From: Bdellovibrionales bacterium
GTDB taxonomy: Bacteria; Bdellovibrionota; Bdellovibrionia; Bdellovibrionales; JAUICD01
Direction of reading: 5' to 3'
Assembly (NCBI GenBank): GCA_965262715.1
Contig: OZ253553.1
Coordinates: 128,001 to 192,000 of the forward strand
Length of the DNA stretch: 64,000 nucleotides
Positions 2,797-45,284 of this stretch are shown piece by piece; the first letter of the stretch is position 1, and each line of letters begins with the position of its first letter. A model generated the notes under the pieces. The model worked only from the letters and a program-made list of their open reading frames with translations, was not told where the DNA came from and made no database searches. The translations under genes were made by a program, and so were the position numbers.

Positions 2797-4136
2797 TTGT
2801 ATCACCAGAGGGCCTGGATATAGTCAGTTGGACGAAAACATCTGAACTCATAGATGTTCAAATCAATACTGAAAACGGACAGATTTGCATCCCGCACACT
2901 AAAGCTGGTCAATGGAGTCCTACACAAAATGTAAATGCACCAAGTGCTGAAGACCCAGTAGAAGGTAATGCATGGATTGTTGTTCGATTAGATGGCAAGA
3001 GTTATGCTGCCCCTTATGATTGGCTAAGCTCTGGAGAGCCCTGTCATATGCTAGATGTAGAAACTCTTAGTAACTTGTACGAACAACTACCACAACGCAC
3101 AGGTGTAACTGAACTAGCTAGATGGAAGCCTCTATCTGGAGATAGAATTGGCTTTCTAGTGTCAGGGCTTGCTAAAAATGGCTTAGAAAATGTCAAAGAA
3201 AGATCAAATATGTTAATTGTAACACTTCCTGATGCAAATGGAGAGATACCTACAGAAGTGGAAGAGCCTTGTTCTCAAGATCCTGAAAGTTCATTTTGTT
3301 TAGAAAACTGCCATGTTCCAAATAAAATAGAAGTTATAAGTAGTATAGCAGAAAGAAATTCCGATTCTCTAACAAAAGCTCATCAACTTTATACAGATAG
3401 ACAATCAAATGGATCTGAGTCAATAGCTAATACAGATGAACGCTGGGAATTTATGGATAGAGTTGCTCAAGTACTTCACGGTATAGATGATCGCTTTGGC
3501 TATACATGTACGAATGGAAACTGCAGTGATATCTCTACATATCAGATTGCCTACAAATGTGAAGAAGACCCTGAAGTAGAAGACCCTGAAGTAGAAGACC
3601 CTGAAGTAGAAGACCCTGAAGCAGAAGACCCTGAAGCAGAAGGTTCTGAAGCAAGTGAAAACATTGCCACTGTCAGTATTCTTACACAAGACGGTGAAAC
3701 TCAATGGCAACTTGATGTCCTTCAAGATACAACTGCAACAACTACTACAACTGTTATAGCTGCAACGACGACAACTGTTTCAACGACCACAACAACTATA
3801 ATGACCACAGCAAGCCTGGATATTCATAGCTGGGTATACCCAAGAGAAGGATCTACAGATTACTTTGATTGTTTTTTCTTTCCAGAGTCATCTTCTTGCC
3901 AACCAACAGATGATGATGGTGACGGTGATGGTGATGGTGATGATGATCAAGGGTTGCTTGATACACCATGCACTCAGGAGCAAGTGGATGATGGCTATGG
4001 TAATCACTCTGAAAAGAATGAATGTCTTCCAAGATGTTTTTCTTTCGCACGGAGTAATGCAAATGGAGTAGAGACTGGAGAAGGTGATGAGTGTGACGAT
4101 ACTTCCAATTACCATATCCTACCTATACAAAACACT
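2797..4136 (+). repeat. 1,340-bp direct repeat copy 1 (left target duplication of IS1634)
   Basis: Starts ttgtatcaccagag, ends atacaaaacact; same sequence at 6093-7432 (offset 3296). Confidence 0.95.
3564..3650 (+). repeat. 15-bp tandem repeat (gaagaccctgaagYa) encoding EDPEV/EDPEA, about 5-6 units; second copy near 6860-6946
   Basis: Direct reading of tandem units. Confidence 0.85.
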
Positions 4137-6092
4137 CCTGAGTTTGACACTTAATTTGAATTTTCGTGATATTTTTTTCAAGGAATGTTGTATTTATAGT
4201 CATTAGCGGTTATTGTGTTTGTATTTTGGTCAAAAAGTGTAGTGTACTTATTTATCATACACTACGCGTCATATACCTTATTTTCTTTTATTTTTTATAT
4301 TTTTCTTGTAATGTATTTTTATGTTCATAAGGTCTACAAGAAATCCGAGAGGAGACATATATTATCATCTTGTTGAGAGCTACAGATTAGGTTCTCAAGT
4401 GAAGCAAAGGATTCTAATGTCTTTAGGTAAAGCCGCGGATAAGGAAGTTAACTTGAAGAAGCTTCTAGAAGTATTATCTAAAGAGTTAGAGATAATTCCT
4501 GCTAGTAAGTTATTAAAAGAGATTGATGTTAAAGACACTTTTATATTAGGTCCCTTACTTATAATAGATGCTATTTTCAAACAATTAAATCTCTATGAAT
4601 TATTAACAGATTTAAAACAAAAGCACCCTAAAGTACAATTTGATTTTGTTAAGATTATTTTTACATTGGTTATAAGCCGTTTTGTAGAGCCATGTTCTAA
4701 GCTTAAAGTATTTTCACACTGGCAGAAGTTATTTTACCCTGATTTTTTAGAAGAGGAGCTTCATCTTCAAGACATTTATCGTTCTTTAGATATTCTAAGT
4801 AAGCATAAGGAAGATATAGAGAAGACTCTTTATACACAAGGTAAGTCTCAGTTAAGTTTTTTCAATGAGTGTGATGTTATTTTGTATGATTTAACGACAT
4901 TGAGATTTGAGAGTACCCGAGAGGATTTAGATAATCTTCGAAGATTTGGTTATAGCAAAGAGAAGAGGAGTGATTGTACCCAGGTGGTATTTGGACTTTT
5001 AGTAGATAGAGAAGGTATGCCCTTAGGCTTTGATGTTTATCCTGGAAATACCTTTGAAGGTAAAACCATACCTTCAGTTATGGAGAAACTAAAAAAGAAG
5101 TTTAAGATCAGAAGATTTATATTAGTAGGAGATAGAGGTTTATTTTCTAATGAGAATTTACAATCTGTAAAAGCAAAGGGAGATGAATTTATAGTAGGAT
5201 TAAAGCTAGGTTTATTAAAGGATCGTCATTCAGAGATATACAATTTAAAGAATTTTAAATTTATAAATGAAGATTTAGCTATATACGAGACGAGTTATAA
5301 TGATAATCGTTGTATAATTACCTGGTCAAGAAAGAGAGCAGAACGAGATAAGAAAGTAAGAGAAGATATTCTATCTAAGTTAGAAGATAAGCTTTCAAAA
5401 TCGTCATCAAGCACAAAGGATTTTGTATCTAATAGCAATTATAAGAAGTATATTATTCATCCTAAGAGTAAAGGCAAGCCTACTTTAAATAAGTCAGCCA
5501 TAGAACAATCAGAGAGGACAGATGGTTTTTTTGGAATCATTACAAATACAGATAGTTTAAGTTCTGAAGAGATTATAACGAACTATAAGCAATTATGGAA
5601 GGTAGAGAATTCATTTAGAGAATTGAAAGGTACATTAAAGACACGTCCTATGTTCCACTGGACAGATAAGAGGATCTTAGGACATTTAGTTGTGTGTTTT
5701 TTATCTTACTTATGTGAGGCTTATTTTTCAAAGAAGTTACATCAGAGAAACATCACATTAAAAGATAAAGCAATTACAGACAAGAGAATAAAGTCAAGGC
5801 CATTGAGTGTGGCAGAAGCTATGTCAAAGCTGAAAGAAGTACGAGCTATACCTGTGAGGGTAAAGGATAAGACACTTTGGATCAGAACAGATATTAACGG
5901 TAACAATGCTGATGTATTTAAAGCTATAGGAGCAAAGATCCCATCAAAACAACTTAAAGTAGAATCTACTTAGACCTACAAACAATCTCTTAAATCTCTA
6001 CCACAAAATCAAAATGTAGTGGTACAAAATCACACATCCACTGTAACTAACTAAAATAACTTAACTTTATTTTCGCAACTGTCAAACTCAGG
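4137..6092 (+). mobile_element. IS1634-family insertion sequence, 1,956 bp
   Basis: Perfect 13-bp terminal inverted repeats cctgagtttgaca (4137-4149) / tgtcaaactcagg (6080-6092) around a 550-aa DDE transposase. Confidence 0.93.
4321..5973 (+). CDS. IS1634-family transposase
   Basis: Motifs YYHLVESYR, YDLTTLRFE, FGYSKEKRSD, GDRG, YKQLWKVENSFRELK..L..RP.FHW. Confidence 0.92.
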   Translation: MFIRSTRNPRGDIYYHLVESYRLGSQVKQRILMSLGKAADKEVNLKKLLEVLSKELEIIPASKLLKEIDVKDTFILGPLLIIDAIFKQLNLYELLTDLKQKHPKVQFDFVKIIFTLVISRFVEPCSKLKVFSHWQKLFYPDFLEEELHLQDIYRSLDILSKHKEDIEKTLYTQGKSQLSFFNECDVILYDLTTLRFESTREDLDNLRRFGYSKEKRSDCTQVVFGLLVDREGMPLGFDVYPGNTFEGKTIPSVMEKLKKKFKIRRFILVGDRGLFSNENLQSVKAKGDEFIVGLKLGLLKDRHSEIYNLKNFKFINEDLAIYETSYNDNRCIITWSRKRAERDKKVREDILSKLEDKLSKSSSSTKDFVSNSNYKKYIIHPKSKGKPTLNKSAIEQSERTDGFFGIITNTDSLSSEEIITNYKQLWKVENSFRELKGTLKTRPMFHWTDKRILGHLVVCFLSYLCEAYFSKKLHQRNITLKDKAITDKRIKSRPLSVAEAMSKLKEVRAIPVRVKDKTLWIRTDINGNNADVFKAIGAKIPSKQLKVEST

Positions 6093-7432
6093 TTGTATCA
6101 CCAGAGGGCCTGGATATAGTCAGTTGGACGAAAACATCTGAACTCATAGATGTTCAAATCAATACTGAAAACGGACAGATTTGCATCCCGCACACTAAAG
6201 CTGGTCAATGGAGTCCTACACAAAATGTAAATGCACCAAGTGCTGAAGACCCAGTAGAAGGTAATGCATGGATTGTTGTTCGATTAGATGGCAAGAGTTA
6301 TGCTGCCCCTTATGATTGGCTAAGCTCTGGAGAGCCCTGTCATATGCTAGATGTAGAAACTCTTAGTAACTTGTACGAACAACTACCACAACGCACAGGT
6401 GTAACTGAACTAGCTAGATGGAAGCCTCTATCTGGAGATAGAATTGGCTTTCTAGTGTCAGGGCTTGCTAAAAATGGCTTAGAAAATGTCAAAGAAAGAT
6501 CAAATATGTTAATTGTAACACTTCCTGATGCAAATGGAGAGATACCTACAGAAGTGGAAGAGCCTTGTTCTCAAGATCCTGAAAGTTCATTTTGTTTAGA
6601 AAACTGCCATGTTCCAAATAAAATAGAAGTTATAAGTAGTATAGCAGAAAGAAATTCCGATTCTCTAACAAAAGCTCATCAACTTTATACAGATAGACAA
6701 TCAAATGGATCTGAGTCAATAGCTAATACAGATGAACGCTGGGAATTTATGGATAGAGTTGCTCAAGTACTTCACGGTATAGATGATCGCTTTGGCTATA
6801 CATGTACGAATGGAAACTGCAGTGATATCTCTACATATCAGATTGCCTACAAATGTGAAGAAGACCCTGAAGTAGAAGACCCTGAAGTAGAAGACCCTGA
6901 AGTAGAAGACCCTGAAGCAGAAGACCCTGAAGCAGAAGGTTCTGAAGCAAGTGAAAACATTGCCACTGTCAGTATTCTTACACAAGACGGTGAAACTCAA
7001 TGGCAACTTGATGTCCTTCAAGATACAACTGCAACAACTACTACAACTGTTATAGCTGCAACGACGACAACTGTTTCAACGACCACAACAACTATAATGA
7101 CCACAGCAAGCCTGGATATTCATAGCTGGGTATACCCAAGAGAAGGATCTACAGATTACTTTGATTGTTTTTTCTTTCCAGAGTCATCTTCTTGCCAACC
7201 AACAGATGATGATGGTGACGGTGATGGTGATGGTGATGATGATCAAGGGTTGCTTGATACACCATGCACTCAGGAGCAAGTGGATGATGGCTATGGTAAT
7301 CACTCTGAAAAGAATGAATGTCTTCCAAGATGTTTTTCTTTCGCACGGAGTAATGCAAATGGAGTAGAGACTGGAGAAGGTGATGAGTGTGACGATACTT
7401 CCAATTACCATATCCTACCTATACAAAACACT
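6093..7432 (+). repeat. 1,340-bp direct repeat copy 2 (right target duplication of IS1634)
   Basis: Begins at the base after the right TIR; matches 2797-4136 by eye and in translation. Confidence 0.95.
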
Positions 7433-7969
7433 TTTGAGGATAAATGTTGTAGGAGATATTCTAAAACCTCTTGTCCTCCTGGTCACAAGATACGTAATGG
7501 TATTTGTTACCCAACATGTCAGAAAGCAGCAGAACTAGCAGGACACACAATTAGAGCAACTGGCTTTACAGGCAACTACGTGCTTCATCAAAAACAAACT
7601 TTTGCCTTTGATTCAAACTGCAGAGCACTAGATGAATATGGCCCTAATGGGTATAATGACTGGCAGGATTTTAGTTTTTACGATCCTTATACATTTAAAA
7701 CTCGGCGAAATGATAGAAATACTATTTATAAGATAGTAGCAGATCCCAATGATGATTATCTCTGCTGTATAAGAGATATACCCAACATCACAAAAACTCC
7801 TACTTATAGACCAGATGGTTGGACTCAAGAAGAACGTGATCGTTTCCCTGCTACCACAACAACAACAACTTCTGGATCTAACAGTGATGAATGTCAAAAT
7901 AATAATGATTGTGCATCTGGTTATGAATGTAATGCAGGTGAATGCACATTCAGAGAAATAGGCCGGTAA
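6344..7969 (+). pseudogene. 3' part of the interrupted Cys-rich lipoprotein (no signal peptide, native C-terminus)
   Basis: Identical to the 2556 ORF up to ...PIQNT, then continues FEDKCCRR... to a Cys-rich C-terminus. Confidence 0.85.
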
Positions 7970-8263: not shown

Positions 8264-9125
8264 ATGAAGCGTATTATTTCTAACTTAAGTAAAAACTTAG
8301 GTAGTATAAGTTATTTACTTTTGATGACATTCATATCACTTTGCCTATTAAGATGTAGTCATCTTGAAACTTCTGATGAAGATGACATAAGAGGATATAG
8401 CAACCTTGGAGCTCTTGAAGCAAAACAAGGAAATATAAGTAAGGCTAGAGAGCTTTACAAAAAAGCTTGTGATGGAAATAAAGTGTTAGGATGTACTAAC
8501 CTTGGAGCTCTTGAAGCAAAACAAGGAAATATAAGGAAAGCTAGAAAGCCTCTTAAAAAAGCCTGTGATGAAAATGACATGCTAGGGTGTATCATCCTTG
8601 GAACTCTTGAAGAAGAGCAAGGAAATATAAGGAAAGCTAGAAAGCCTCTTAAAAAAGCCTGTGATGGAAATGACATGCTAGGGTGTATCAGCCTTGGATT
8701 TTTTGAAGAAAAACAAGGAAATATAAGCAAAGCCAGAGAGCTTTATAAAAAGGCATGTGATGGAAATGACATGCTTGGATGTACTAACCTCGGATATCTT
8801 GAAAGAAAACAAGGAAATATAAGCAGAGCTAGAGAGCTTTATAAGAAAGCTTGTGATGGAAATGAAATGTTAGGATGTACTAACCTTGGAGCTCTTGAAG
8901 CAAAACAAGGAAATATAAGCAAAACTAGAGAGCTTTATAAGAAAGCTTGTGATGGAAATCACATGAAAGGATGTACTAACTACTAACCTCGGATATCTTG
9001 AAGAAAAACAAGGAAACATAAGTAAGGCTAGAAAGCTTCTTAAAAAAGCTTGTGATGGAAATGAAATGTTAGGATGTACCAACCTTGGAGTTCTTGAAGT
9101 AAAGAAAAAAAATAAAACCAAATGA
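8264..9125 (+). pseudogene. Sel1-like/Hcp-type cysteine-rich repeat lipoprotein, frameshifted by a 7-bp duplication
   Basis: 32-aa repeats (GCxNLGxLExKQGNIxKARxxxKKACDGNxML). tactaac is duplicated at 8974-8987; removing one copy extends the repeats to TGA at 9123-9125. Confidence 0.85.
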
Positions 9126-9177: not shown

Positions 9178-9795
9178 ATGAAATTCAATCCTCAGATATT
9201 TATTTTAATTTTTGCAGCTTGGCTGCTTTCCTTAACGAGCATCAGTTGTACACATTCTCTTCTTGAACAGGCTTTTGTTGTCAATGAATCTGTGTTGAAA
9301 AAAAGAGTCTTACAAACTCAAAGATTTGAGAATATAAATGAAAAACAGTTACTGTCAGCTATTATTGGACTTATGCAAGATTTGAACTTTAGACTCGACG
9401 AAGGAGATAAAGATTTAGGAGTATTTACAGGTTCTAAAAGGCGGTCTTTTATAAGGAATCTCCCTGTAACACGTATGGTACAGAGGTATGAAACACGCAC
9501 CCAAGTGATTAATGGCAAGATTGTTAGTAGGCCTGCTCTTGTAAATGTTCCTGTAACTGTTTTTGAACCATTTGTTTTTATTGAAGAAACTCGTATAGCT
9601 ATAGTCATTTATCCTGTATCTCAAAGAAAAGATCGAGTAAAAGGAAACTTTTTAGTAAGAGCAAATCTTCAAAAAATGACTTGGAATGAGTCAACAGGAG
9701 GAATCACTCAAGCAGGACCTTTTGGTGACTCTGCCTTCTATGAGAGTTTTTTCTCTATCCTTTCAAAATCAATATTTCTAGAAACCAACTTATAA
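9178..9795 (+). CDS. Hypothetical lipoprotein
   Basis: Hydrophobic N-terminus with SISC lipobox-like motif; 205-aa ORF. Confidence 0.65.
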   Translation: MKFNPQIFILIFAAWLLSLTSISCTHSLLEQAFVVNESVLKKRVLQTQRFENINEKQLLSAIIGLMQDLNFRLDEGDKDLGVFTGSKRRSFIRNLPVTRMVQRYETRTQVINGKIVSRPALVNVPVTVFEPFVFIEETRIAIVIYPVSQRKDRVKGNFLVRANLQKMTWNESTGGITQAGPFGDSAFYESFFSILSKSIFLETNL

Positions 9796-9924
9796 AATTC
9801 TATCATTGTAGAACTAGCAAAAATAATTCTAAGATAATATAGTGGTATGCGCGGTTTGCTTTTAATATTAGATAAATGTATAAAGAATCCATAAACCTAT
9901 GATTATATCAAAAACTTTGTAGAT

Positions 9925-10830
9925 ATGAAAATATTCGTGATTTTTTTATTTATGGTTACAAGTATGATCTTAGAGGCAAATGAAGATATGCCTCTTAAAG
10001 ACTCTTTAACTTTATATGATACTTTTCAACACAATCGTATGATAAAAGATATAGAAAAGAGACAAGAAGAAATAAAGCAAGATTCAAAAAACCAACCACA
10101 TTCATCTTATATTCAAGAGTCTGAACACAAATTATTAGAAGGCTTTTTAGCAAAATACCCTGAAAATCTTTTTCTTCACTATAACTTTGGCATTTTTTGG
10201 ATATTTCAAGATATACAAAAAACTGTGACACAATTTTTATTTATACTGAAAAATAAAAAGACTGATGAATTAAGATTTAAGGCAGCCTTTAACTTAGGAA
10301 CTCTTTATGGTTATGATAAAAGATTAAATACTGAGGATGGTCATCATATAGATGAAGCCTTAAAGTATTATCAAACAGCTTTAGATATCAAACCAGACTC
10401 TTTAGAGACAAAGCAAAATATTGAAATGCTGTTTTTAACAAAACAAGCTAATAAGTCACAACAAGGTAAATCAGACCCAAAGCAACAAAGACAAGAAGGT
10501 CAAAACTCAGATCAAACAAAACAACAAGATGAAGATGAGCAAAAGTCTTCTAAAGATCAAGATGAGTCCATTGATGATCAGAATGCAGCTTATAAAGAGA
10601 GTAGAAAAAATCAAGGTGAACAAAAGTTTCAAGGCAAAGATTTAACAGAAAGAGATATACAAGATATCTTAGGAGAATTAAAACAACAAGAACAACAAAT
10701 CTTGGAAAAGCTAATCCAGGAAGAAGCCAAAAAACAAAATGCTAAAAATCAAGGAAAAACTCAATGGATGTTAGATGGCATTTTAAAAAATGAGACAACA
10801 AAAGATCAAGGATTAGACAAAGATTGGTAG
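9925..10830 (+). CDS. TPR protein, BatC-like
   Basis: Signal peptide, TPR motifs (FNLG, ALKYYQTALDIKPD, KQNIE), Q/D/K-rich linker, terminal KDW. Confidence 0.7.
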   Translation: MKIFVIFLFMVTSMILEANEDMPLKDSLTLYDTFQHNRMIKDIEKRQEEIKQDSKNQPHSSYIQESEHKLLEGFLAKYPENLFLHYNFGIFWIFQDIQKTVTQFLFILKNKKTDELRFKAAFNLGTLYGYDKRLNTEDGHHIDEALKYYQTALDIKPDSLETKQNIEMLFLTKQANKSQQGKSDPKQQRQEGQNSDQTKQQDEDEQKSSKDQDESIDDQNAAYKESRKNQGEQKFQGKDLTERDIQDILGELKQQEQQILEKLIQEEAKKQNAKNQGKTQWMLDGILKNETTKDQGLDKDW

Positions 10831-10911
10831 TATCTAGTAACAAAGCCATTTAGGTTTATGACTTTTTTTTCCTTGCATTAATAGGTCTATAAGTAGTAGG
10901 ATGCTTATAGT

Positions 10912-11925
10912 ATGAACCTAAAGAACCACCCCGTACAGATTCACGATATTCAAGAAGCACTGGGGGTTTTAAAAGGTCATATCCATAAAACTGATCTTAC
11001 CTTATCTCAACATATCTCACATCTCGCAGGATGTCCTATTTATCTTAAACATGAAAACGCCCAGCGTACAGGCAGCTTTAAAATTCGAGGAGCTTTAAAC
11101 AAACTCTCTACCCTTTCTGAAAAAGAGAAAAGTAAGGGTATTATAGCAAGCTCTGCAGGGAATCATGCTCAAGGCGTAGCTTGGGCTGCCAACATTTTCT
11201 CTATACCTTCTCATATTGTAATGCCTCAAACGACTGCTTTAGTTAAAATAAATGCCACAAAAGGCTATGGTGCCAACGTAATTTTAGAGGGACAAATATA
11301 TGATGAAGCTTATACTCATGCTCAGAGTTTAGTCCAACAAAAGGGTTATTTATTTGTACACCCTTATGAAGACCCTTTAATTATAGCTGGTCAAGGAACT
11401 GTAGGCCTAGAGATTGTGGAATGTTTAGAAGATGTATCTTCTGTTATTGTTCCAGTTGGTGGTGGAGGTTTAGCATCTGGTATAGCTGTTGCTATAAAAT
11501 CTCTTAAGCCTAAGTGTCGTGTGATTGGAGTACAAATGGTTTCTGCTCCTTCAATGACAGAAACCTTTCAAAAAAAACAAATTCAAGTGATTCATCCATG
11601 CTCTAGCTCACTAGCTGATGGGGTTAGCGTCAAAACACCTAGTGAAATCGTCTATAAAAACTACCTTTCTCGCTTATTAGATGATATAGTAACTGTTAAT
11701 GAAGATGAAGTCACCCAAGCTCTCTTATTCCTATTAGAAAGGAATAAGACTCTTGTAGAAGGGTCTGGCGCTTTAACTGTCGCTGCTGTTATTTATAGAA
11801 ACTTATCATTGAAAGGTAAAACAGTTGCTATTTTAAGTGGTGGTAATATTGACTTGAGCTTACTGGCTAAGTTAATTCAATTTCAACCAATTTCTCTCAA
11901 GCTTTCTAAACCTCCCTTAAAATAA
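10912..11925 (+). CDS. ilvA: Threonine ammonia-lyase (PLP-dependent), short form without ACT domain
   Basis: KHENAQRTGSFKIRGA, SAGNHAQG, VGGGGL, SGGNID. Confidence 0.88.
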   Translation: MNLKNHPVQIHDIQEALGVLKGHIHKTDLTLSQHISHLAGCPIYLKHENAQRTGSFKIRGALNKLSTLSEKEKSKGIIASSAGNHAQGVAWAANIFSIPSHIVMPQTTALVKINATKGYGANVILEGQIYDEAYTHAQSLVQQKGYLFVHPYEDPLIIAGQGTVGLEIVECLEDVSSVIVPVGGGGLASGIAVAIKSLKPKCRVIGVQMVSAPSMTETFQKKQIQVIHPCSSSLADGVSVKTPSEIVYKNYLSRLLDDIVTVNEDEVTQALLFLLERNKTLVEGSGALTVAAVIYRNLSLKGKTVAILSGGNIDLSLLAKLIQFQPISLKLSKPPLK

Positions 11926-12100
11926 ACTTTTCTTATAATCTTTAAATTACTTATTGTTTCTAAATGAGTCACTATTAAATGTTAACTTTTTATATATCTT
12001 AAAATTTTTTAAGATTATTCATAAACTTAATGTAAGTTTAGTCAATTTTTGTTATAATCATATTAATAGTTCTTTCATGATATAACTTTGAGGCAAACAA

Positions 12101-12400
12101 ATGATTACAAGACTACACTTCAATGGAGGGTATTACAAAGTCACTCAATTAATAGAACCAAATATTATAGAAATTGAGGGTATTTGGTTTATAAAACTAG
12201 AAGGAGTTGATGAAGAAACAACAAAAGAAGAATTACTCCCAGAATGTTTAAAAATAGGCAATACAATCAAAGTTATTCCTTACCGTCGCACAGAAAATGC
12301 TCTCATTGTTTGTGATGTTTGGTTAGACGACATCCACATCAATAAAAAATTTTCTAATTATGTAGGAACAAAAGATCTCTTCAGAAGACAGGTCGGATAA
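12101..12400 (+). CDS. Small hypothetical protein, possibly degenerate SNase-like fold
   Basis: 99-aa ORF preceded by gagg; pattern KV..IEPNIIE...IKLEGVD...VWLDD..IN. Confidence 0.55.
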   Translation: MITRLHFNGGYYKVTQLIEPNIIEIEGIWFIKLEGVDEETTKEELLPECLKIGNTIKVIPYRRTENALIVCDVWLDDIHINKKFSNYVGTKDLFRRQVG

Positions 12401-12712
12401 ATATTGTTTCCTTTTCAAGGCATTATTACATAAATATTAAAATATAAGTTTAAATAGCAAGAACAACTCTTACAGAGGTTTGCAACTTATCTGAGAAAGT
12501 GCTTATTTATAATAAATCCGGTATTTTTTAAGATAGGAAAAAATGTTATCTCTTATATGTTTATTTTCCTAACATTTGTCGAAATATCTAACAGTTGTTT
12601 TAGCAAATCAAACCCCTGAACATATCTTATAATCTGTTTCACTTTGATTCCCAAGCTTAGGCCTTAAATTTGCTACTTATAATAATATAAGGAAAGTATA
12701 AGGAGAAAAAGT

Positions 12713-13054
12713 TTGCAGACCAGAGCTTTATATAAAGCAATCCCTTTTATCCTTTGTTGTTTTCTATTATTCACAAACTGCAAAAGAGGCAATCTCAGTT
12801 CATCTCCGGGCGAAAGGACTCAATCAAGCAAACAGGAAGAACAAGTACCTTTCAATCAAGATCCTAATAATAAGAGTCATCAATTTTCTATCACACAACT
12901 TGCTTATGAAAATACAAAGGTAGACATTGTAATAGTAATGGATTCTTCACCTTCAATGGAAGATGATTTTATAGCATTAAGTCATCACTTTGACAGTTTA
13001 TTTAACCAAACTCTTGCATCTATAGATTGGCAGATGGCTTTTTTAGCTTCAGAT
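12713..13054 (+). pseudogene. 5' fragment of a VWA-domain lipoprotein truncated by an IS5/IS903-type element
   Basis: LFTNC signal, KVDIVIVMDSSPSM MIDAS motif; ORF runs into the IS TIR at 13055. Confidence 0.8.
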
Positions 13055-14376
13055 GGCCTTGTTGCACAAAGATTTAAATAGTTTTTATTTTATTTATTTT
13101 TTAAGTAAGATTGTCATTTAATATTTTTTTATCAAGCTGAAAGAGAAGAAGGCACAATCATCTGATTAAGGATTTTACATTTAATAAACACTTCATTTGC
13201 TTGACGATGAAATTCTCTAGAAGATAATTTATCACCTAATAAAGTTTTAAATCTATACATAGCTGTTTCTGATATAGACCTCCTGTGATATTTATGTTTT
13301 TTTTTCCACTTCTTTCTACCCATCTTCTTGATTTCTCTAATATAAGTATCTCTAAGAAGCGGCGATCCCCGACAATTTCCATGCCTCTTAATCACAGCAT
13401 TCTTTCTAGGTGGAGCAACCAATTTTATACTTCTATCACTTGTAAACTGATAACAATTCTTACAGTCATAAGCCCCATCAACTGAAACTTGGCCTATCTC
13501 ATCTTCATATCCTGTCAATAACTCTTCAAAAACCTCATTATCCTTTACAGAATTATCACTTAAAACAGATGCCTTAATCTGGGAATTTGACTCATCTACC
13601 GCTAAATGTAGCTTCTTCCATGTCCTTCTCTTAGAATACCCATGCTGACGGACTTTCCACTCTCCCTCCCCATAAACTTTAAGACCTGTGGAATCAATGA
13701 CAATATGAGGATTCTTGTGAGAAGATAGCTTTCTTTCTAGTTTTACTGATAACTTCTGTAATCTTCTGCAAAGAGTTGTATAATTAGGTATTTCTATATC
13801 AAGACCCATAAGTTCAACTAGGGATTTAGCAAAACCTTCTGTAGATCGCAATTTTAAACCAAATATGAATCTTAATATATTAAGAGTTTCAATAGCTTTA
13901 TCAGAGTAAACTTGTTGACCCCCTTGCTTTGAAGAACATTTTGCATACCAAGATTTGACGATATCTGCTGAAAACCAAAAAGTGATTTGACCTCTATTGA
14001 CTAGAGACTTATTATAAAGACTCCAGTTTATTTTTTTATTTTTACCCATCTCTAGCTCCTTCTGATTTAGTGATTGTGAAAGTTGGGGATGGGTAAATTT
14101 TATAATCATTAAAAACAAAAAATCAAAGTAATAGATATATCAAACTCAGGAAAGATCTTATTGCATAAAAATTTAAGAATGAGATTTGTGAAAGACTTCT
14201 GAAATAGGACTAGGCTAGCGGCTTAGGGTAAATATCTCTTAAACTATTTTATTCTATAATAAAATCTTAAAATAATAGCAATACAAGGCGCGGGGGTTGC
14301 CTAGAGCCTATGGAAGATGCCTGACTTAATTCTCTAATCTTTTATATACTTCCTTAAATCTTTGTGCAACAAAGCC
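13055..14376 (-). mobile_element. IS5-family (IS903 group) insertion sequence, 1,322 bp
   Basis: 23-bp TIRs ggcYttgttgcacaaagatttaa (one mismatch), resembling the IS903 end GGCTTTGTTG; no flanking target duplication seen. Confidence 0.9.
13132..14049 (-). CDS. IS5/IS903-group transposase
   Basis: NWSLYNKSLVNRG, IDSTGLKVYGEGEW, RRTWKKLHL, DGAYD, YHRRSISETAMYRFK; ATG at 14049 preferred over 14118. Confidence 0.93.
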   Translation of the reverse strand: MGKNKKINWSLYNKSLVNRGQITFWFSADIVKSWYAKCSSKQGGQQVYSDKAIETLNILRFIFGLKLRSTEGFAKSLVELMGLDIEIPNYTTLCRRLQKLSVKLERKLSSHKNPHIVIDSTGLKVYGEGEWKVRQHGYSKRRTWKKLHLAVDESNSQIKASVLSDNSVKDNEVFEELLTGYEDEIGQVSVDGAYDCKNCYQFTSDRSIKLVAPPRKNAVIKRHGNCRGSPLLRDTYIREIKKMGRKKWKKKHKYHRRSISETAMYRFKTLLGDKLSSREFHRQANEVFIKCKILNQMIVPSSLSA

Positions 14377-14377
14377 A

Positions 14378-14473
14378 TTTGGCTCTCAAAACAATAAGAT
14401 TATTTTTGATAATCCCCCAGAAAAAGGTACAAAAGTTGATGTTTCCTACAATTACCTAGATTCTAAATCTTAA
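14378..14473 (+). pseudogene. Orphan C-terminal fragment, probably of the VWA lipoprotein
   Basis: Open frame right after the IS: FGSQNNKIIFDNPPEKGTKVDVSYNYLDSKS*. Confidence 0.55.
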
Positions 14474-14556
14474 ATACTTCAACAATTTAACACTTACTGC
14501 TTGATTTTAATTTTTGTATATAAGTTGCAGTGTTTTTTAAGGTGATTCTATGAAAC

Positions 14557-16419
14557 TTAGGAATCTTTTATTACAGCTTTTATTGGTAACGTAATAATAA
14601 ATGTTGTACCTTTATTTTCCTTTGATTGTACAGTGATATCTCCACCATGTTTTCGAATAATATTGTAAGAAATACTCAAGCCCAATCCTGTTCCTTTACC
14701 TATTTCCTTTGTAGTGAAGAATGGATCAAAAATATAAGCAATTTTATCTTCATCAATACCCTTACCATCATCTCTAATTTCGATTTTTATATTAAGCTCT
14801 GTTTTTCTAACTGCAATCCATATATTGCCCTTATCCTCAATCGCCCCAGCAGCATTGGAGATAATGTTCATAAATACTTGATTGACCTGACCTGCATGAC
14901 ATTGAATTATTGGAATATCTTTTAAATCAAGGTGAACTTGAATGCGTGTCTTAATCTCGCCTGACAGAATATCCAGCGTGCTTTTTATATTTTCCTCTAC
15001 ATTATAATCTTGTAAACTACTACTATCTAAACGAGAAAAAGTACGCAACCCTGATACAATATCCATAAGTCTTTGTGATCCATCTTGGCACGACTTGATC
15101 AATTTTGGCAGGTCTTTAATAATGTAGTCATAATCTATATCCTGTTTAAACTCTGTAGCTTTCTCTGGAGACTTTTGCAGGACGTCCGCCAAAGCAATAA
15201 GGTTTTTAGAATATGTCTCTAAATGAGTCATGTTAGCATAAATAAAGCTAATAGGATTATTAAGCTCATGAGCCACCCCCGCTACTAATTGGCCTAAGCT
15301 AACCATTTTAGCAGAATGCACAAGTTGAGACTGCGTCTCTTGTAGTTCCTTATTAGTGAATTCTAATTCATGAATAGACTCTGCAATACGCAACGACATA
15401 TTATTGAATGTTTCAATGAGTTTGTTTATCTCCCTAGGACCACGAACAGTAGAAATTTGAGTTCCTAGTTTACCTACCTCAATTTCCCCAGTAGCAGTTA
15501 CAAGATTAGAAATAGGCCGAACAATGATACGACTGACCAAAATCCATATTACAATTAAAAAAAGAATAATAACTCCAAGACCTGTTAAAAGAGCCTTTGA
15601 TATCTTATTAATCATTGTATATTGATTGTCAGTTCTTACAGTTGTTACTCCTAAGTGTATGCGATCCCTTTCGGAATCAATAGATTCAACATGCAAGTTA
15701 TAAGGACGTATATGATCAGTAAAACTTTTAGATTTTGGATTAAAAAACCACCTATCTTGCAATAAAAGATCTTTATATGTAGCAATAACTGGTTTGTATT
15801 CATCATCTAGAACGACAATGTCAACATTGAGCATTTCTTTAAAATAATCTAAATCATGTTGATTAATATATCTCACTTCTTGAATAAACCCTTTTATTTT
15901 ATCTTCCACCAATATTTTAGAGTAAGCTATTAGTTCTATGCGATTTTTATATATATCACGAAAGGAAATATATTCCCTCGTTTGAAGCTCATTTTGAAGG
16001 TTTGATGGCAAATAAAGAACTTCTCTTTTTTGAATATTTTTATTAGCGTCTCTAAAAAGGATCAACTCAGAAGTTCCTTTAGCATCAAATAAAGATATTT
16101 GAGAGATGGGATAAACAGCCATCCAAGTTTTAAATAAGCTTTCAATTTGATTGGTAGAATTCGATGATAAGGCAGAAATAAGCTGAGGATCTTTAGCATG
16201 TTGCTGTGTATACAGTCTCAATTGATTTTCTGATATGTTAAAGGAAATAGCAACTTCTTTAAAATGAGACTCTAATCGCCTACGCTGCTCTTCATTAAAA
16301 ATAACTTGAAATTCAACAAGACTATAAGTAATCAATAAAAGCGGTATGATAGAGAATATCAAAAACCATAACGATAATATATAAAGTAAGCTTTTGCCTT
16401 TTTTTCTCTTATTTGTCAT
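14557..16419 (-). CDS. Membrane sensor histidine kinase (HAMP, HisKA, HATPase; NtrB-like)
   Basis: Two TM segments, GVAHELNNP H-box, NIISNA, DDGKGI, FDPFFTTK, GTGLGLS. Confidence 0.93.
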   Translation of the reverse strand: MTNKRKKGKSLLYILSLWFLIFSIIPLLLITYSLVEFQVIFNEEQRRRLESHFKEVAISFNISENQLRLYTQQHAKDPQLISALSSNSTNQIESLFKTWMAVYPISQISLFDAKGTSELILFRDANKNIQKREVLYLPSNLQNELQTREYISFRDIYKNRIELIAYSKILVEDKIKGFIQEVRYINQHDLDYFKEMLNVDIVVLDDEYKPVIATYKDLLLQDRWFFNPKSKSFTDHIRPYNLHVESIDSERDRIHLGVTTVRTDNQYTMINKISKALLTGLGVIILFLIVIWILVSRIIVRPISNLVTATGEIEVGKLGTQISTVRGPREINKLIETFNNMSLRIAESIHELEFTNKELQETQSQLVHSAKMVSLGQLVAGVAHELNNPISFIYANMTHLETYSKNLIALADVLQKSPEKATEFKQDIDYDYIIKDLPKLIKSCQDGSQRLMDIVSGLRTFSRLDSSSLQDYNVEENIKSTLDILSGEIKTRIQVHLDLKDIPIIQCHAGQVNQVFMNIISNAAGAIEDKGNIWIAVRKTELNIKIEIRDDGKGIDEDKIAYIFDPFFTTKEIGKGTGLGLSISYNIIRKHGGDITVQSKENKGTTFIITLPIKAVIKDS

Positions 16420-16480
16420 AAATGAATAAACTTTTTTGTCTTGTGATTAAAGATTACTTTTTCGTATATTCTTTAGAGCA

Positions 16481-16921
16481 TTATTTTTTGATGATACCTG
16501 TGGTATTTTCTATTTGTTGCTTTACATCTCTTGAAGATTTTATAGAGTCTATAGTCCAAAGAATGTCTTGAGGCACTTTTTTAAAGATATTAAAAAAGAA
16601 CCCAACAAAGAATAAAACTCCAATAAAGGCAACCCCTATTACGAGAGTTGTCCATTTATATATTTTAAATAAATTAATCATTTTATCTAAAATAGATTCT
16701 TCTAATGGTATAGTTTTTAAGAAATCTGGAGGCATTTGAATTTGAGACATTGTTTGACTATAGTTTAGACCTTGCTTAAGAGATTGAAATTCTGTTTCTA
16801 ATTCAGGATACTCTTTAATGCTAGTCTCTACTGCTTTTGTTCTAGAAGCATCCAAATCTCCAACAACAAAATCATAGAGCATCTCACGACAAAGAAACTC
16901 ACTGAGCTGACGCTGTTTCAT
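16481..16921 (-). CDS. Single-TM protein, anti-sigma-factor-like
   Basis: N-terminal CREMLYDFVVGDLD pattern, one TM helix, overlaps upstream sigma-like gene. Confidence 0.5.
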   Translation of the reverse strand: MKQRQLSEFLCREMLYDFVVGDLDASRTKAVETSIKEYPELETEFQSLKQGLNYSQTMSQIQMPPDFLKTIPLEESILDKMINLFKIYKWTTLVIGVAFIGVLFFVGFFFNIFKKVPQDILWTIDSIKSSRDVKQQIENTTGIIKK

Positions 16922-17450
16922 AGCTATTTGTTACTCCTATAAATTGAACTCCAGAAGGAGACATATTACCAAGACATCTTAAACCATATCCTAATCTGTA
17001 TTTAACGGTTCCTATGGATATTTTCATAGCTTTTGCAATATCTTCATCTTTAAACAAAAGAATTTTAGATAGAATAACAACAAGCACCACTTCATCTTCT
17101 GTTTCTCTTAGAAAATCACACCATGGTTCCAAATCAAAGGAAGGTGTAAAACTTACTTTATGAGCATCTCTTAAAGTCTGTTTATTTTTGTTTTTTGAAA
17201 AGCTATATTTTTGATATTTCTTCCAAATTTGCAAACAAGATGGAATCAATAAAGATATAACTTCTTGTCTTCTTTGTTGTTCTTGCATTTCTGAATAGAT
17301 AGGCTGACTTTGTATTGAGCTATTGGGAAGCTGAGTTGATAATTGCTTTTGTCTTTTCAAAACTTTACGTGTTGCCTTTAATGCTATTTTCTCTTCTAAA
17401 AATATATAATAAAAAAATAAAAATATGGATTTTATATAAGGCTCAAACAT
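16899..17450 (-). CDS. Protein with sigma-70 region 4-like HTH (degenerate ECF sigma-like)
   Basis: EDIAKAMKISIGTVKYRL motif. Confidence 0.55.
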   Translation of the reverse strand: MFEPYIKSIFLFFYYIFLEEKIALKATRKVLKRQKQLSTQLPNSSIQSQPIYSEMQEQQRRQEVISLLIPSCLQIWKKYQKYSFSKNKNKQTLRDAHKVSFTPSFDLEPWCDFLRETEDEVVLVVILSKILLFKDEDIAKAMKISIGTVKYRLGYGLRCLGNMSPSGVQFIGVTNSYETASAQ

Positions 17451-17466
17451 CCTACACCCTTAAAAG

Positions 17467-18534
<1,068 letters not shown>

Positions 18535-18733
18535 TTACTTTACAGTTATTCATATTAGAACTTCTTTTAACTTATATAGCTAGCATATTATGGTAATTAA
18601 GCTGAACCTTCAACCTATTTCTTTAACTTCAAAATCGCTGCTAAATTATGCATTTTTCACTCCATACTTCTTTTTGATTTTACTTTTTTATCATTTTGTT
18701 CAATATAATGTATAATGTCAAAATCCATGCTCT

Positions 18734-19045
18734 CTATGAAATAGCACTAAATAGAACTACATAATTTTTGAGAATATTTTTATGAAAAGATTGTGGAAGC
18801 CTAGCCCAATCAAAAATTTGAATTAAAATGGGGATATTGGACTCTTTAACAAGTTCTTCAAAGTCATTTATCTCTTTTATATCAATAGGACTCAAATCTT
18901 TTGCTCGTAAAACTAAATCTAAATCACTTGTTTCATGAGCTGTCCCATCCACGCGACTGCCATAAGCCCATATCTCTATTGGTGTTTTAAAAGCTTGAGC
19001 AGCAAGTTTTAATAATTGTTCTCTATCTCTTTCTCTAAGAATCAT
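18734..19045 (-). CDS. Minimal nucleotidyltransferase (MNT) domain protein
   Basis: YGSRVDG...SDLDL motif, 103 aa, overlaps partner gene. Confidence 0.88.
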   Translation of the reverse strand: MILRERDREQLLKLAAQAFKTPIEIWAYGSRVDGTAHETSDLDLVLRAKDLSPIDIKEINDFEELVKESNIPILIQIFDWARLPQSFHKNILKNYVVLFSAIS

Positions 19046-43583: not shown

Positions 43584-45284
43584 CTACTGCTGCTTAGGAG
43601 CTTCTACTACTGCAGGATCTACATTACCAGCAGCAGGATCTACATTACCAGCAGCAGGATCTACATTACCAGCAGCAGGATCTACATTACCAGCAGCAGG
43701 ATCTACATTACCAGCAGCAGGATCTACATTACCAGCAGCAGGATCTACATTACCAGCAGCAGGATCTACATTACCAGCAGCAGGATCTACATTACCAGCA
43801 GCAGGATCTACATTACCAGCAGCAGGATCTACATTACCAGCAGCAGGATCTACATTACCAGCAGCAGGATCAGCAGTTACATCAGGATCAGCAGTTACAT
43901 CAGGATCAGCAGTTACATCAGGATCAGCAGTTACATCAGGATCAGCAGGTGCTATTACTACAGCAAAATCATTAAGTTCAAAACTATGTCCAGTAGCAAC
44001 TGTTGCCATCATAGCAATTCCATCATCATCAGTCATAGCAATTCCTTGATCATTAGTCATAGCTATATCTTTAAGTAATTCAAGAACAAGAGAGAATCCT
44101 TCACCATTAACGTTTCTTGTTAGTAAACGAGCACTGTAAGCTGTACCATCTTCATCAGTAAGACCTTCAAGAGAAGTAATTATACCACTCAAGTCGTCCT
44201 CTTCTAGTACACTACCCATTGCATTTGGATCAAGGCCATTACCATCTTCACCAATTGCTCTTCTAAAACTGTCTCTAGCCTCTGTAGCACTACCATCTGC
44301 CATTTCAGTAACATGAGAGATGATAATAGGATCAGCATCTGTTTTTGATAACTCAACCCAGATTGATCCTTCATAACTCAAATCTGTTGCCTCATTAAAA
44401 TTGCTCATATCTTCATCTGTAGTCAACCAAACTGCTTGAGTAATAGTCACATAACCATTTCTTTCACTAAGAAGTGTCTCAAGTTCATTTTCTGCATTTC
44501 CTTCACCTCCGTTAAACATATTTCTATAATCACGTATTGGACCGAAGTGTAATACAAAACGAGAGTTCAATGCACCATTGATTGTTGCTACTGTCTCACT
44601 TGCGACTTTCCCTTCTTCTATTACGATAAGTCCTTCAAGTGATTTAGTTGGTACAACAATCTCTTCAAATTCAATGTAGTGATTTGCAAGATAACCATCT
44701 GCTTCATATCGAAGAAGCCTAGCGGTATCTTCAGTAAAATCTGCTACTTTACCCTCTTCATTGGAAGGTAAAATATAAGTTGCATCTGCAGTCTCTATTT
44801 TGTTACTCAAATCATAATATTCATCACCTATAGACAATCCATTCACAACATTATTAGAAAGATCACGCATAACAGAGATATCGAGTTGATAATTCTCATC
44901 ATCATCATAATTTACAAGGTAAGCCTTAGCCTCTTCTTCTTCTGCTTCTATTGATGGTGTTGCCTCTACATTAGGTGCGCCCGTTGCTTTTATTTCAGCT
45001 TGCAGTTGTGCTCTAGCAACATCTTGAGATACTACACTCTCATCATTTAGGAAGCTCTCAAATACATCCCCTGATAGTTCAGGTGGAATATGTACAGCAT
45101 TTTTTGCACTGTATCGACTGGAATTATTCTTATCAAAATTAGCATTACTTAACTTAAGGTTGTTAGCTCGCCTCTGAATTTCATTAGGCTGATTTGTACC
45201 TGATGGGGAACATCCCGTCATCATAATTAATGCGCTCGTTATACCTAAAAGTGAAAGAATGGTTGATGGTGATTTTGCTCTCAT
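43584..45284 (-). CDS. Acidic lipoprotein with C-terminal tandem repeats
   Basis: RBS aaggagg, lipobox MTGC, (DPDVTA)4 and (AAGNVDP)12. Confidence 0.85.
   Translation of the reverse strand: MRAKSPSTILSLLGITSALIMMTGCSPSGTNQPNEIQRRANNLKLSNANFDKNNSSRYSAKNAVHIPPELSGDVFESFLNDESVVSQDVARAQLQAEIKATGAPNVEATPSIEAEEEEAKAYLVNYDDDENYQLDISVMRDLSNNVVNGLSIGDEYYDLSNKIETADATYILPSNEEGKVADFTEDTARLLRYEADGYLANHYIEFEEIVVPTKSLEGLIVIEEGKVASETVATINGALNSRFVLHFGPIRDYRNMFNGGEGNAENELETLLSERNGYVTITQAVWLTTDEDMSNFNEATDLSYEGSIWVELSKTDADPIIISHVTEMADGSATEARDSFRRAIGEDGNGLDPNAMGSVLEEDDLSGIITSLEGLTDEDGTAYSARLLTRNVNGEGFSLVLELLKDIAMTNDQGIAMTDDDGIAMMATVATGHSFELNDFAVVIAPADPDVTADPDVTADPDVTADPDVTADPAAGNVDPAAGNVDPAAGNVDPAAGNVDPAAGNVDPAAGNVDPAAGNVDPAAGNVDPAAGNVDPAAGNVDPAAGNVDPAAGNVDPAVVEAPKQQ
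43615..43938. repeat. Perfect VNTR: 12 x 21 bp (43615-43866) plus 4 x 18 bp (43867-43938)
   Basis: Units ggatctacattaccagcagca and ggatcagcagttacatca. Confidence 0.95.

Follow-up and report, generated by a model that had tools for sequence, protein, structure and literature searches.

An insertion sequence (IS) of the IS1634 family in a Bdellovibrionales bacterium (GCA_965262715.1, contig OZ253553.1) lies between two identical copies of a 1,340-bp sequence, and our results indicate that this direct repeat is very likely the target-site duplication generated by insertion of the intact element. The locus is part of a 64,000-nt stretch (positions 128,001 to 192,000 of the contig), hereafter the window; coordinates are window positions unless a genome label is given. 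The two copies (2797-4136 and 6093-7432) show no mismatch, their identity begins exactly at 2797/6093 and ends exactly at 4136/7432, and the 1,956 bp between them carry a 13-bp perfect inverted repeat at each end (Table 1). The 1,340-bp sequence is found exactly twice in the 2.94-Mb single-contig genome. Accordingly, the claim of the first-pass annotation that identical copies adjoin both terminal inverted repeats was exact to the base, and its reading of them as a target-site duplication was upheld by junction contigs and k-mer depth in public sequencing data as well as by the long repeats at other copies of the element, both described below.

Table 1. Features of the IS1634-family locus, in window positions.
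Feature	Position	Strand	Remarks
Direct repeat, copy 1 (1,340 bp)	2797..4136	.	last base adjoins left inverted repeat
Left terminal inverted repeat of IS, 13 bp	4137..4149	+	identical end in all close copies
Candidate inward-facing transposase promoter	4144..4173	+	consensus match only: 10/12, 18-nt spacer
Intact IS1634-family DDE transposase, 550 aa (amino acids)	4321..5973	+	NCBIfam, Pfam DDE_Tnp_1, alignments, predicted fold
Right terminal inverted repeat, 13 bp	6080..6092	-	perfect partner of left end
Direct repeat, copy 2 (1,340 bp)	6093..7432	.	first base adjoins right inverted repeat; X2 junction contig and doubled depth
Interrupted host gene, 5' part, 532 aa	2556..4154	+	predicted lipoprotein-like, Cys-rich; stop codon 18 nt inside IS
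Interrupted host gene, 3' part, 541 aa from internal ATG	6344..7969	+	without N-terminal hydrophobic segment

Misassembly at an IS with many copies might produce such a repeat, in which case only one copy would exist. Six public runs (labels X1-X6) contain part of the region, and the contigs of five of them were compared with the locus. In X2, which may be the source sample, a 59-bp contig at depth 19.7 joins the right end of the IS to the start of the repeat, the loose end behind 7432 continues into the left end of the IS, and contigs break at both repeat ends with both unique junctions present; k-mer depth, which is independent of assembler layout, is 34.5-36.4 over the repeat vs. 16.1-18.9 over the unique flanks, that is, doubled. 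These data show two copies, where the misassembly about which the first-pass annotation had cautioned would have left one. What speaks for an artefact is that no single read or contig among the public runs crosses the whole locus, and that in X3, X4 and X5, which carry the same sample label as X2, contigs enter the repeat from a unique flank and leave it again, and none of the pieces listed has an IS junction; pruned weak branches or an IS-free allele may account for the latter. Neither X1, in which related IS copies predominate, nor X6, where the repeat has depth 2 and unique flanks are missing, was used as support. However, other IS families of the same assembly lack such repeats, separate assemblies give the same pattern, and some repeats have diverged or were struck by a later IS; the existence of aged repeats, and of one repeat copy that a later IS has entered, favours biology over assembly. 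Hence, we regard an artefact as extremely unlikely.

The 1,340-bp duplication is typical of this element rather than a freak. The genome contains 21 full-length relatives at 79-100% nucleotide identity (BLAST; lineage A) and four further, distant IS1634-like groups (lineages B-E), and direct repeats of 38-1,666 bp abut the element at 32 of the 34 copies in lineages A-D. In lineage A this applies to 19 of the 21 full copies: in 17 of them the repeat is 50-1,666 bp long and differs at one position or none, in one it measures 327 bp and its left copy is interrupted by a later IS, and in one it measures 733 bp, with 96.5% identity between the copies. In lineages B, C and D, whose transposases share 29-30% aa identity with those of lineage A, all 13 measured copies have repeats (38-1,663 bp; one lineage D hit without a right end was unmeasured, and one lineage D repeat inside another IS copy was omitted from the length list). 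The 31 listed lengths have a median of 251 bp and sum to 14.5 kb, and three of them (1,593, 1,663 and 1,666 bp) exceed that of the focal repeat. As controls, lineage E, a shorter IS1634-like element, has 7-bp duplications at both of its copies (read from the flanks), and duplications at the remaining repeated elements of the assembly are 2-9 bp long or absent, none of these elements being abutted by a long repeat. The window also contains an IS5-family transposase (13132-14118); members of that family are flanked by short duplications of no more than 9 bp in this genome.

Alternatively, the element might first have made a short duplication, with the long repeat arising later through unequal recombination between two insertions that arose independently close together, or through one-ended attack on a nearby sister site. 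IS-bounded tandem duplications are well known, and this explanation predicts many copies with short duplications. Yet there is none among the 34 copies of lineages A-D, the sole exception being a 4-bp match within a tandem array; no flank of one lineage A copy matches that of another; two fully identical IS copies carry repeats of 1,340 and 118 bp; and the other IS families of the genome, as noted, lack long repeats. In favour of such a history, the 8-24 kb repeats of Mycoplasma mycoides PG1 were ascribed to flanking IS elements, according to the accessible part of PMC1798306. We judge it very unlikely for the repeats described here. Because no copy in lineages A-D keeps a short duplication and the flanks do not cross-match, formation of the repeat at insertion is well supported, and we hold it to be highly probable. 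The first-pass annotation had proposed to measure the repeat at every genomic copy, with short duplications elsewhere pointing to unequal recombination; the measurement gave the opposite result.

The transposase belongs to the IS1634 family by its match to NCBIfam NF033559 (369 bits, cut-off 100, model positions 1-482 of 483); its Pfam match is DDE_Tnp_1. The DDE triad (D190, D271 and E429, with a long spacer before E) is invariant in alignments of 8 and 90 rows, and Y422, L425, E429 and K436 are invariant as well, with L425 replacing the arginine of the YREK motif. According to the accessible part of PMC2266710, the family comprises elements of 1,500-2,000 bp with ends of the form C-----YT, usually lacks the arginine of YREK, and in most members makes duplications of 5-6 bp. 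The element agrees in size (1,956 bp) and in its ends (C at position 1, TT at 7-8), and departs from the AT-rich 5-6 bp duplication of the majority, with 38-1,666 bp in lineages A-D; a length that varies between copies, the mark of the long-repeat type, was found at 32 of 34 copies. The predicted fold (mean predicted local distance difference test score, pLDDT, 78.7) has its best structural matches in Tn5 transposase (E 4.5e-8, template modelling score about 0.4, 10% identity), and no solved structure matching the transposase by sequence was found. While Tn5/IS50, of the IS4 superfamily, would thus be the closest in fold, IS4-family duplications are fixed at about 8-13 bp (accessible part of PMC2266710), and the transposase studied here has L425 rather than the YREK arginine. 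Among its closest matches, the titled ones come from Bdellovibrionales metagenome-assembled genomes (MAGs), and the host is likely a low-GC representative of this order. In an unrooted tree of 25 transposases, which has four unlabelled rows and does not include the IS1634 and IS1549 type elements, a single branch (support 97/95) splits 17 long-repeat from 4 short-repeat rows.

Long duplications have also been reported for some IS1182- and IS30-family elements, for which our literature search gave no confirmation. For IS1634 (M. mycoides) and IS1549 (Mycobacterium smegmatis), the accessible part of PMC2266710 gives repeats of 8-514 bp and states that no model had been proposed as of 2008, in agreement with the long, variable duplications that the first-pass annotation had ascribed to both. 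The element described here resembles these two in family (by NCBIfam), in its single large DDE open reading frame (ORF), in its short inverted repeats starting with C, and in direct repeats that are long and variable in length; it differs in that 9 of 31 repeats exceed 514 bp, 5 exceed 1 kb and 6 contain whole ORFs. It is also similar in family, ends and size to elements of the ISGka5 type (5-6 bp), unlike which its repeats are neither fixed nor short, and which fall on the other side of the supported tree branch; ISGka5 of Geobacillus itself makes 6 bp in vivo (accessible part of PMC8024623). Restriction-modification insertions likewise show long, variable direct repeats around the insert, but that class is defined by the absence of other mobile elements and has neither transposase nor terminal inverted repeats (accessible part of PMC2853133). 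Among PMC3053259, PMC11004492, PMC7002104, PMC9330008 and PMC3365025, the accessible parts give one case of a 55-bp duplication, for the archaeal ISH2, and nothing further on duplication size. In the literature searched, which leaves most subscription journals outside, there was no kilobase target duplication and no mechanism, only the statement of 8-514 bp. That is, the finding is an extension, about threefold in size and into the range of whole genes, of a known and unexplained trait, and not a new system.

Similar repeats flank related elements elsewhere. We observed repeats of 58, 307 and 761 bp in genome G001, 877 bp in G004, 1,377 bp in G053, 117 bp in G314, 30, 301 and a diverged 1,577 bp in G245, and 31-1,406 bp at 20 of 23 elements in G201, so that repeats of 1.4-1.6 kb occur in three other genomes. 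Loci in Bacteroidota MAGs have 82-436 bp and a Persicobacter plasmid 33 bp; three Bacillota plasmid copies of the short type have 5, 6 and 5 bp. Several loci in these sets show no repeat or have flanks too short to judge. A lineage-E-like element in G010 (L028 4579-6209) has 8-bp flanks that are inverted rather than direct.

Two arrangements in these genomes involve larger units. In G245 (C3 7129-30660; L133 and L134), three IS1634 copies lie between units of 5.5-6.6 kb at 95-97% identity; the junctions are identical at each IS copy, and the last unit is followed by unique sequence. This array looks like a tandem amplification from one multi-kilobase duplication; its leftmost unit lacks the first 333 bp of the repeat, which leaves it a candidate target duplication. 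In G201 (C11; L139 and L140 joined, 9319-18982), a 9.7-kb unit lies between exact copies of a 303-bp repeat; it starts with a lone left end, closes with the right end of a full IS, and is likely a composite transposon with a long duplication. A comparable case is the 13-kb repeat of M. mycoides PG1, where, in the accessible part of PMC1798306, IS1634-CE separates the copies, which by their coordinates lie 1,824 bp apart, and one copy was lost on passage. Like the focal locus, it has one IS1634 between two long direct copies; unlike it, the repeat was presented as an IS-flanked, IS-driven duplication rather than as a target duplication.

The two target positions cut by a DDE transposase are normally separated by a small, fixed number of bases. 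To describe the joints of the host genome, we wrote each with the 3' end of the IS joined to target position +1 and omitted three degraded or nested cases (n=28 per end). A occupies target position +1 at 25 of the 28 right-end joints and at 27 of the 28 joints of the left end (52/56, p about 1e-20), with weaker preferences for T at +3 and A at +5; the focal insertion is an exception at its right-end joint (T at +1). The joints of G201 show A at +1 in 17/18 and 16/18 cases (33/36), and in metagenome contigs A follows the right end in 49/56 and T precedes the left end in 47/56. Since the same base is preferred at both ends whatever the spacing between them, both joints appear to be made by the transposase. 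Two other patterns were considered and set aside. Insertion directed at promoters is unsupported, TATAAT-like boxes lying within 12 bp at 4/28 and 3/28 joints, and at 5/18 and 2/18 joints in G201, vs. a background of 23-29%. An asymmetry between right and left ends with respect to non-coding DNA (8:0 in one ORF call, then 7:1, 4:1 and 1:3; pooled 12:5, p 0.14) was dropped.

The overall explanation that we find probable is that the duplication is made by the IS: the transposase would join the two IS ends to opposite strands at separately chosen sites starting with A, an extreme stagger that in the focal case would amount to 1,340 bp, and host enzymes would unwind and copy the DNA between the joints. 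As to how the joints are made, we lean slightly toward both being placed on the same duplex, one after the other, by a tethered complex that would loop out the intervening DNA, followed by strand-displacement or fork-driven fill-in. Once present, such a repeat would be a substrate for homologous recombination that removes the IS cleanly or amplifies the region in tandem, as is established for direct repeats.

A rather unlikely alternative is that the length is set by DNA synthesis, i.e., that after the joining of one end the freed 3' end of the target is extended by strand displacement or by a passing fork, before the other end is joined at a more distant site, which may be on the sister chromatid. 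This would yield duplications only, as observed, and the upper lengths of 1-2 kb are similar to the size of Okazaki fragments. In addition, the pooled lengths (n=74, comprising only copies with a repeat) do not reject an exponential law (Kolmogorov-Smirnov p 0.15), although a log-normal describes them slightly better (Akaike information criterion, AIC, 1024.7 vs. 1028.9). Against it, there is no leading/lagging-strand bias in the host genome (16 vs. 15, with origin and terminus taken from a noisy GC skew), the two joints share one base preference even though their geometry would differ, and none of the 74 repeats falls between 12 and 29 bp, where only about 5 are expected. Helical phasing at 10.0-11.0 bp is absent from 30 host-genome lengths, and in the pooled set the best value among 21 periods and four cut-offs tried, p 0.014 at 10.8 bp, is not significant. 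A first nick would free twist and remove phasing, and sequential capture on the same duplex is therefore favoured over joining set by synthesis or to a sister chromatid.

Beyond the missing spanning reads in the public runs and the missing IS junctions in X3, X4 and X5, several observations weigh against the explanation by an IS-made duplication. Two explicit loop-closure curves fit the lengths worse than the exponential (AIC 1030 and 1041), and the lengths fail to separate looping from displacement synthesis. By eye, the alignments and tree reveal no extra domain that separates long- from short-duplication transposases. Two lineage A copies inside host tandem arrays have no clean repeat. An empty allele of the exact focal locus is absent among 20 related genomes, 2 of which have paralogues only. 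Finally, of the 56 metagenome elements with both ends, only 4 show a repeat (33-93 bp), and a few with >1 kb on each side still have none; most of the metagenome contigs were too short, and this scarcity is likely due to short flanks and to chimeric joins through the IS.

With respect to host genes, the focal insertion splits a 705-codon ORF into the two parts listed in Table 1, and no whole gene lies inside the duplicated 1,340 bp. A paralogue of 781 aa without the interruption aligns continuously over the 7432/7433 junction, and this colinearity supports an ancestral state with a single copy. The 5' part matches no family in Pfam or NCBIfam. The frame of the downstream copy is open from inside the right end of the IS (6065-6343), with no start codon before 6344. 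The idea that each hop can duplicate gene-sized DNA needs the qualification that whole ORFs are duplicated only at some copies: by crude ORF calls, 6 of the 31 repeats contain one, namely lgt, two ankyrin-repeat genes and three ORFs that match no Pfam family. The complete lgt (prolipoprotein diacylglyceryl transferase) is doubled by a 1,593-bp exact repeat (G000:C1 1700152-1701744 and 1703698-1705290). Random placement would put both joints within one ORF in about 16 of 31 cases (95% range 11-21), vs. only 6 of 30 observed, and where one joint lies in a gene untouched by the other, the repeat holds the 3' end of that gene in 34 of 43 cases (hand tally; p 0.0002). Both patterns are accounted for by selection to keep one intact gene under its own promoter, while a targeting preference may be an alternative cause.

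As for the remaining features of the window, the candidate promoter in Table 1 is one match of a consensus scan that returned 19 sites vs. 15.4 in shuffled sequence, which is no evidence of function. A 380-aa ORF (1150-2292) has no Pfam match at E 0.01, and in motifs alone its C-terminal part is similar to an ADP-ribosyltransferase fold. The intergenic segment at 2298-2430 has partial matches in many unrelated contigs, which suggests a dispersed small repeat. A Sel1/TPR-repeat protein (8264-8986) has near-identical internal DNA repeats with a 96-bp period, and a tandem array of a 21-bp unit (43612-43850) is followed by one of an 18-bp unit (43865-43930).

In conclusion, this genome supplies about 30 measured events, a half-site preference, a short-duplication control and an intact, recently spread element, which makes the mechanism directly testable. 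It is tempting to hypothesize, tentatively and with slightly less than even confidence, that a widespread clade of the IS1634 family has uncoupled its two strand-transfer sites, so that every hop duplicates tens of bases to several kilobases and the element acts as a RecA-independent, one-step engine of duplication and amplification that spares genes; the G245 array and the 13-kb repeat of PG1 would then represent the long tail of this reaction. Repeats of this kind would escape short-read assemblies, as well as IS finders that seek only short duplications. If kilobase duplications are routine, gene duplicates such as those of lgt and the two ankyrin-repeat genes would be made in one step, tandem amplification would be seeded, and gene disruption by these elements would be reversible.

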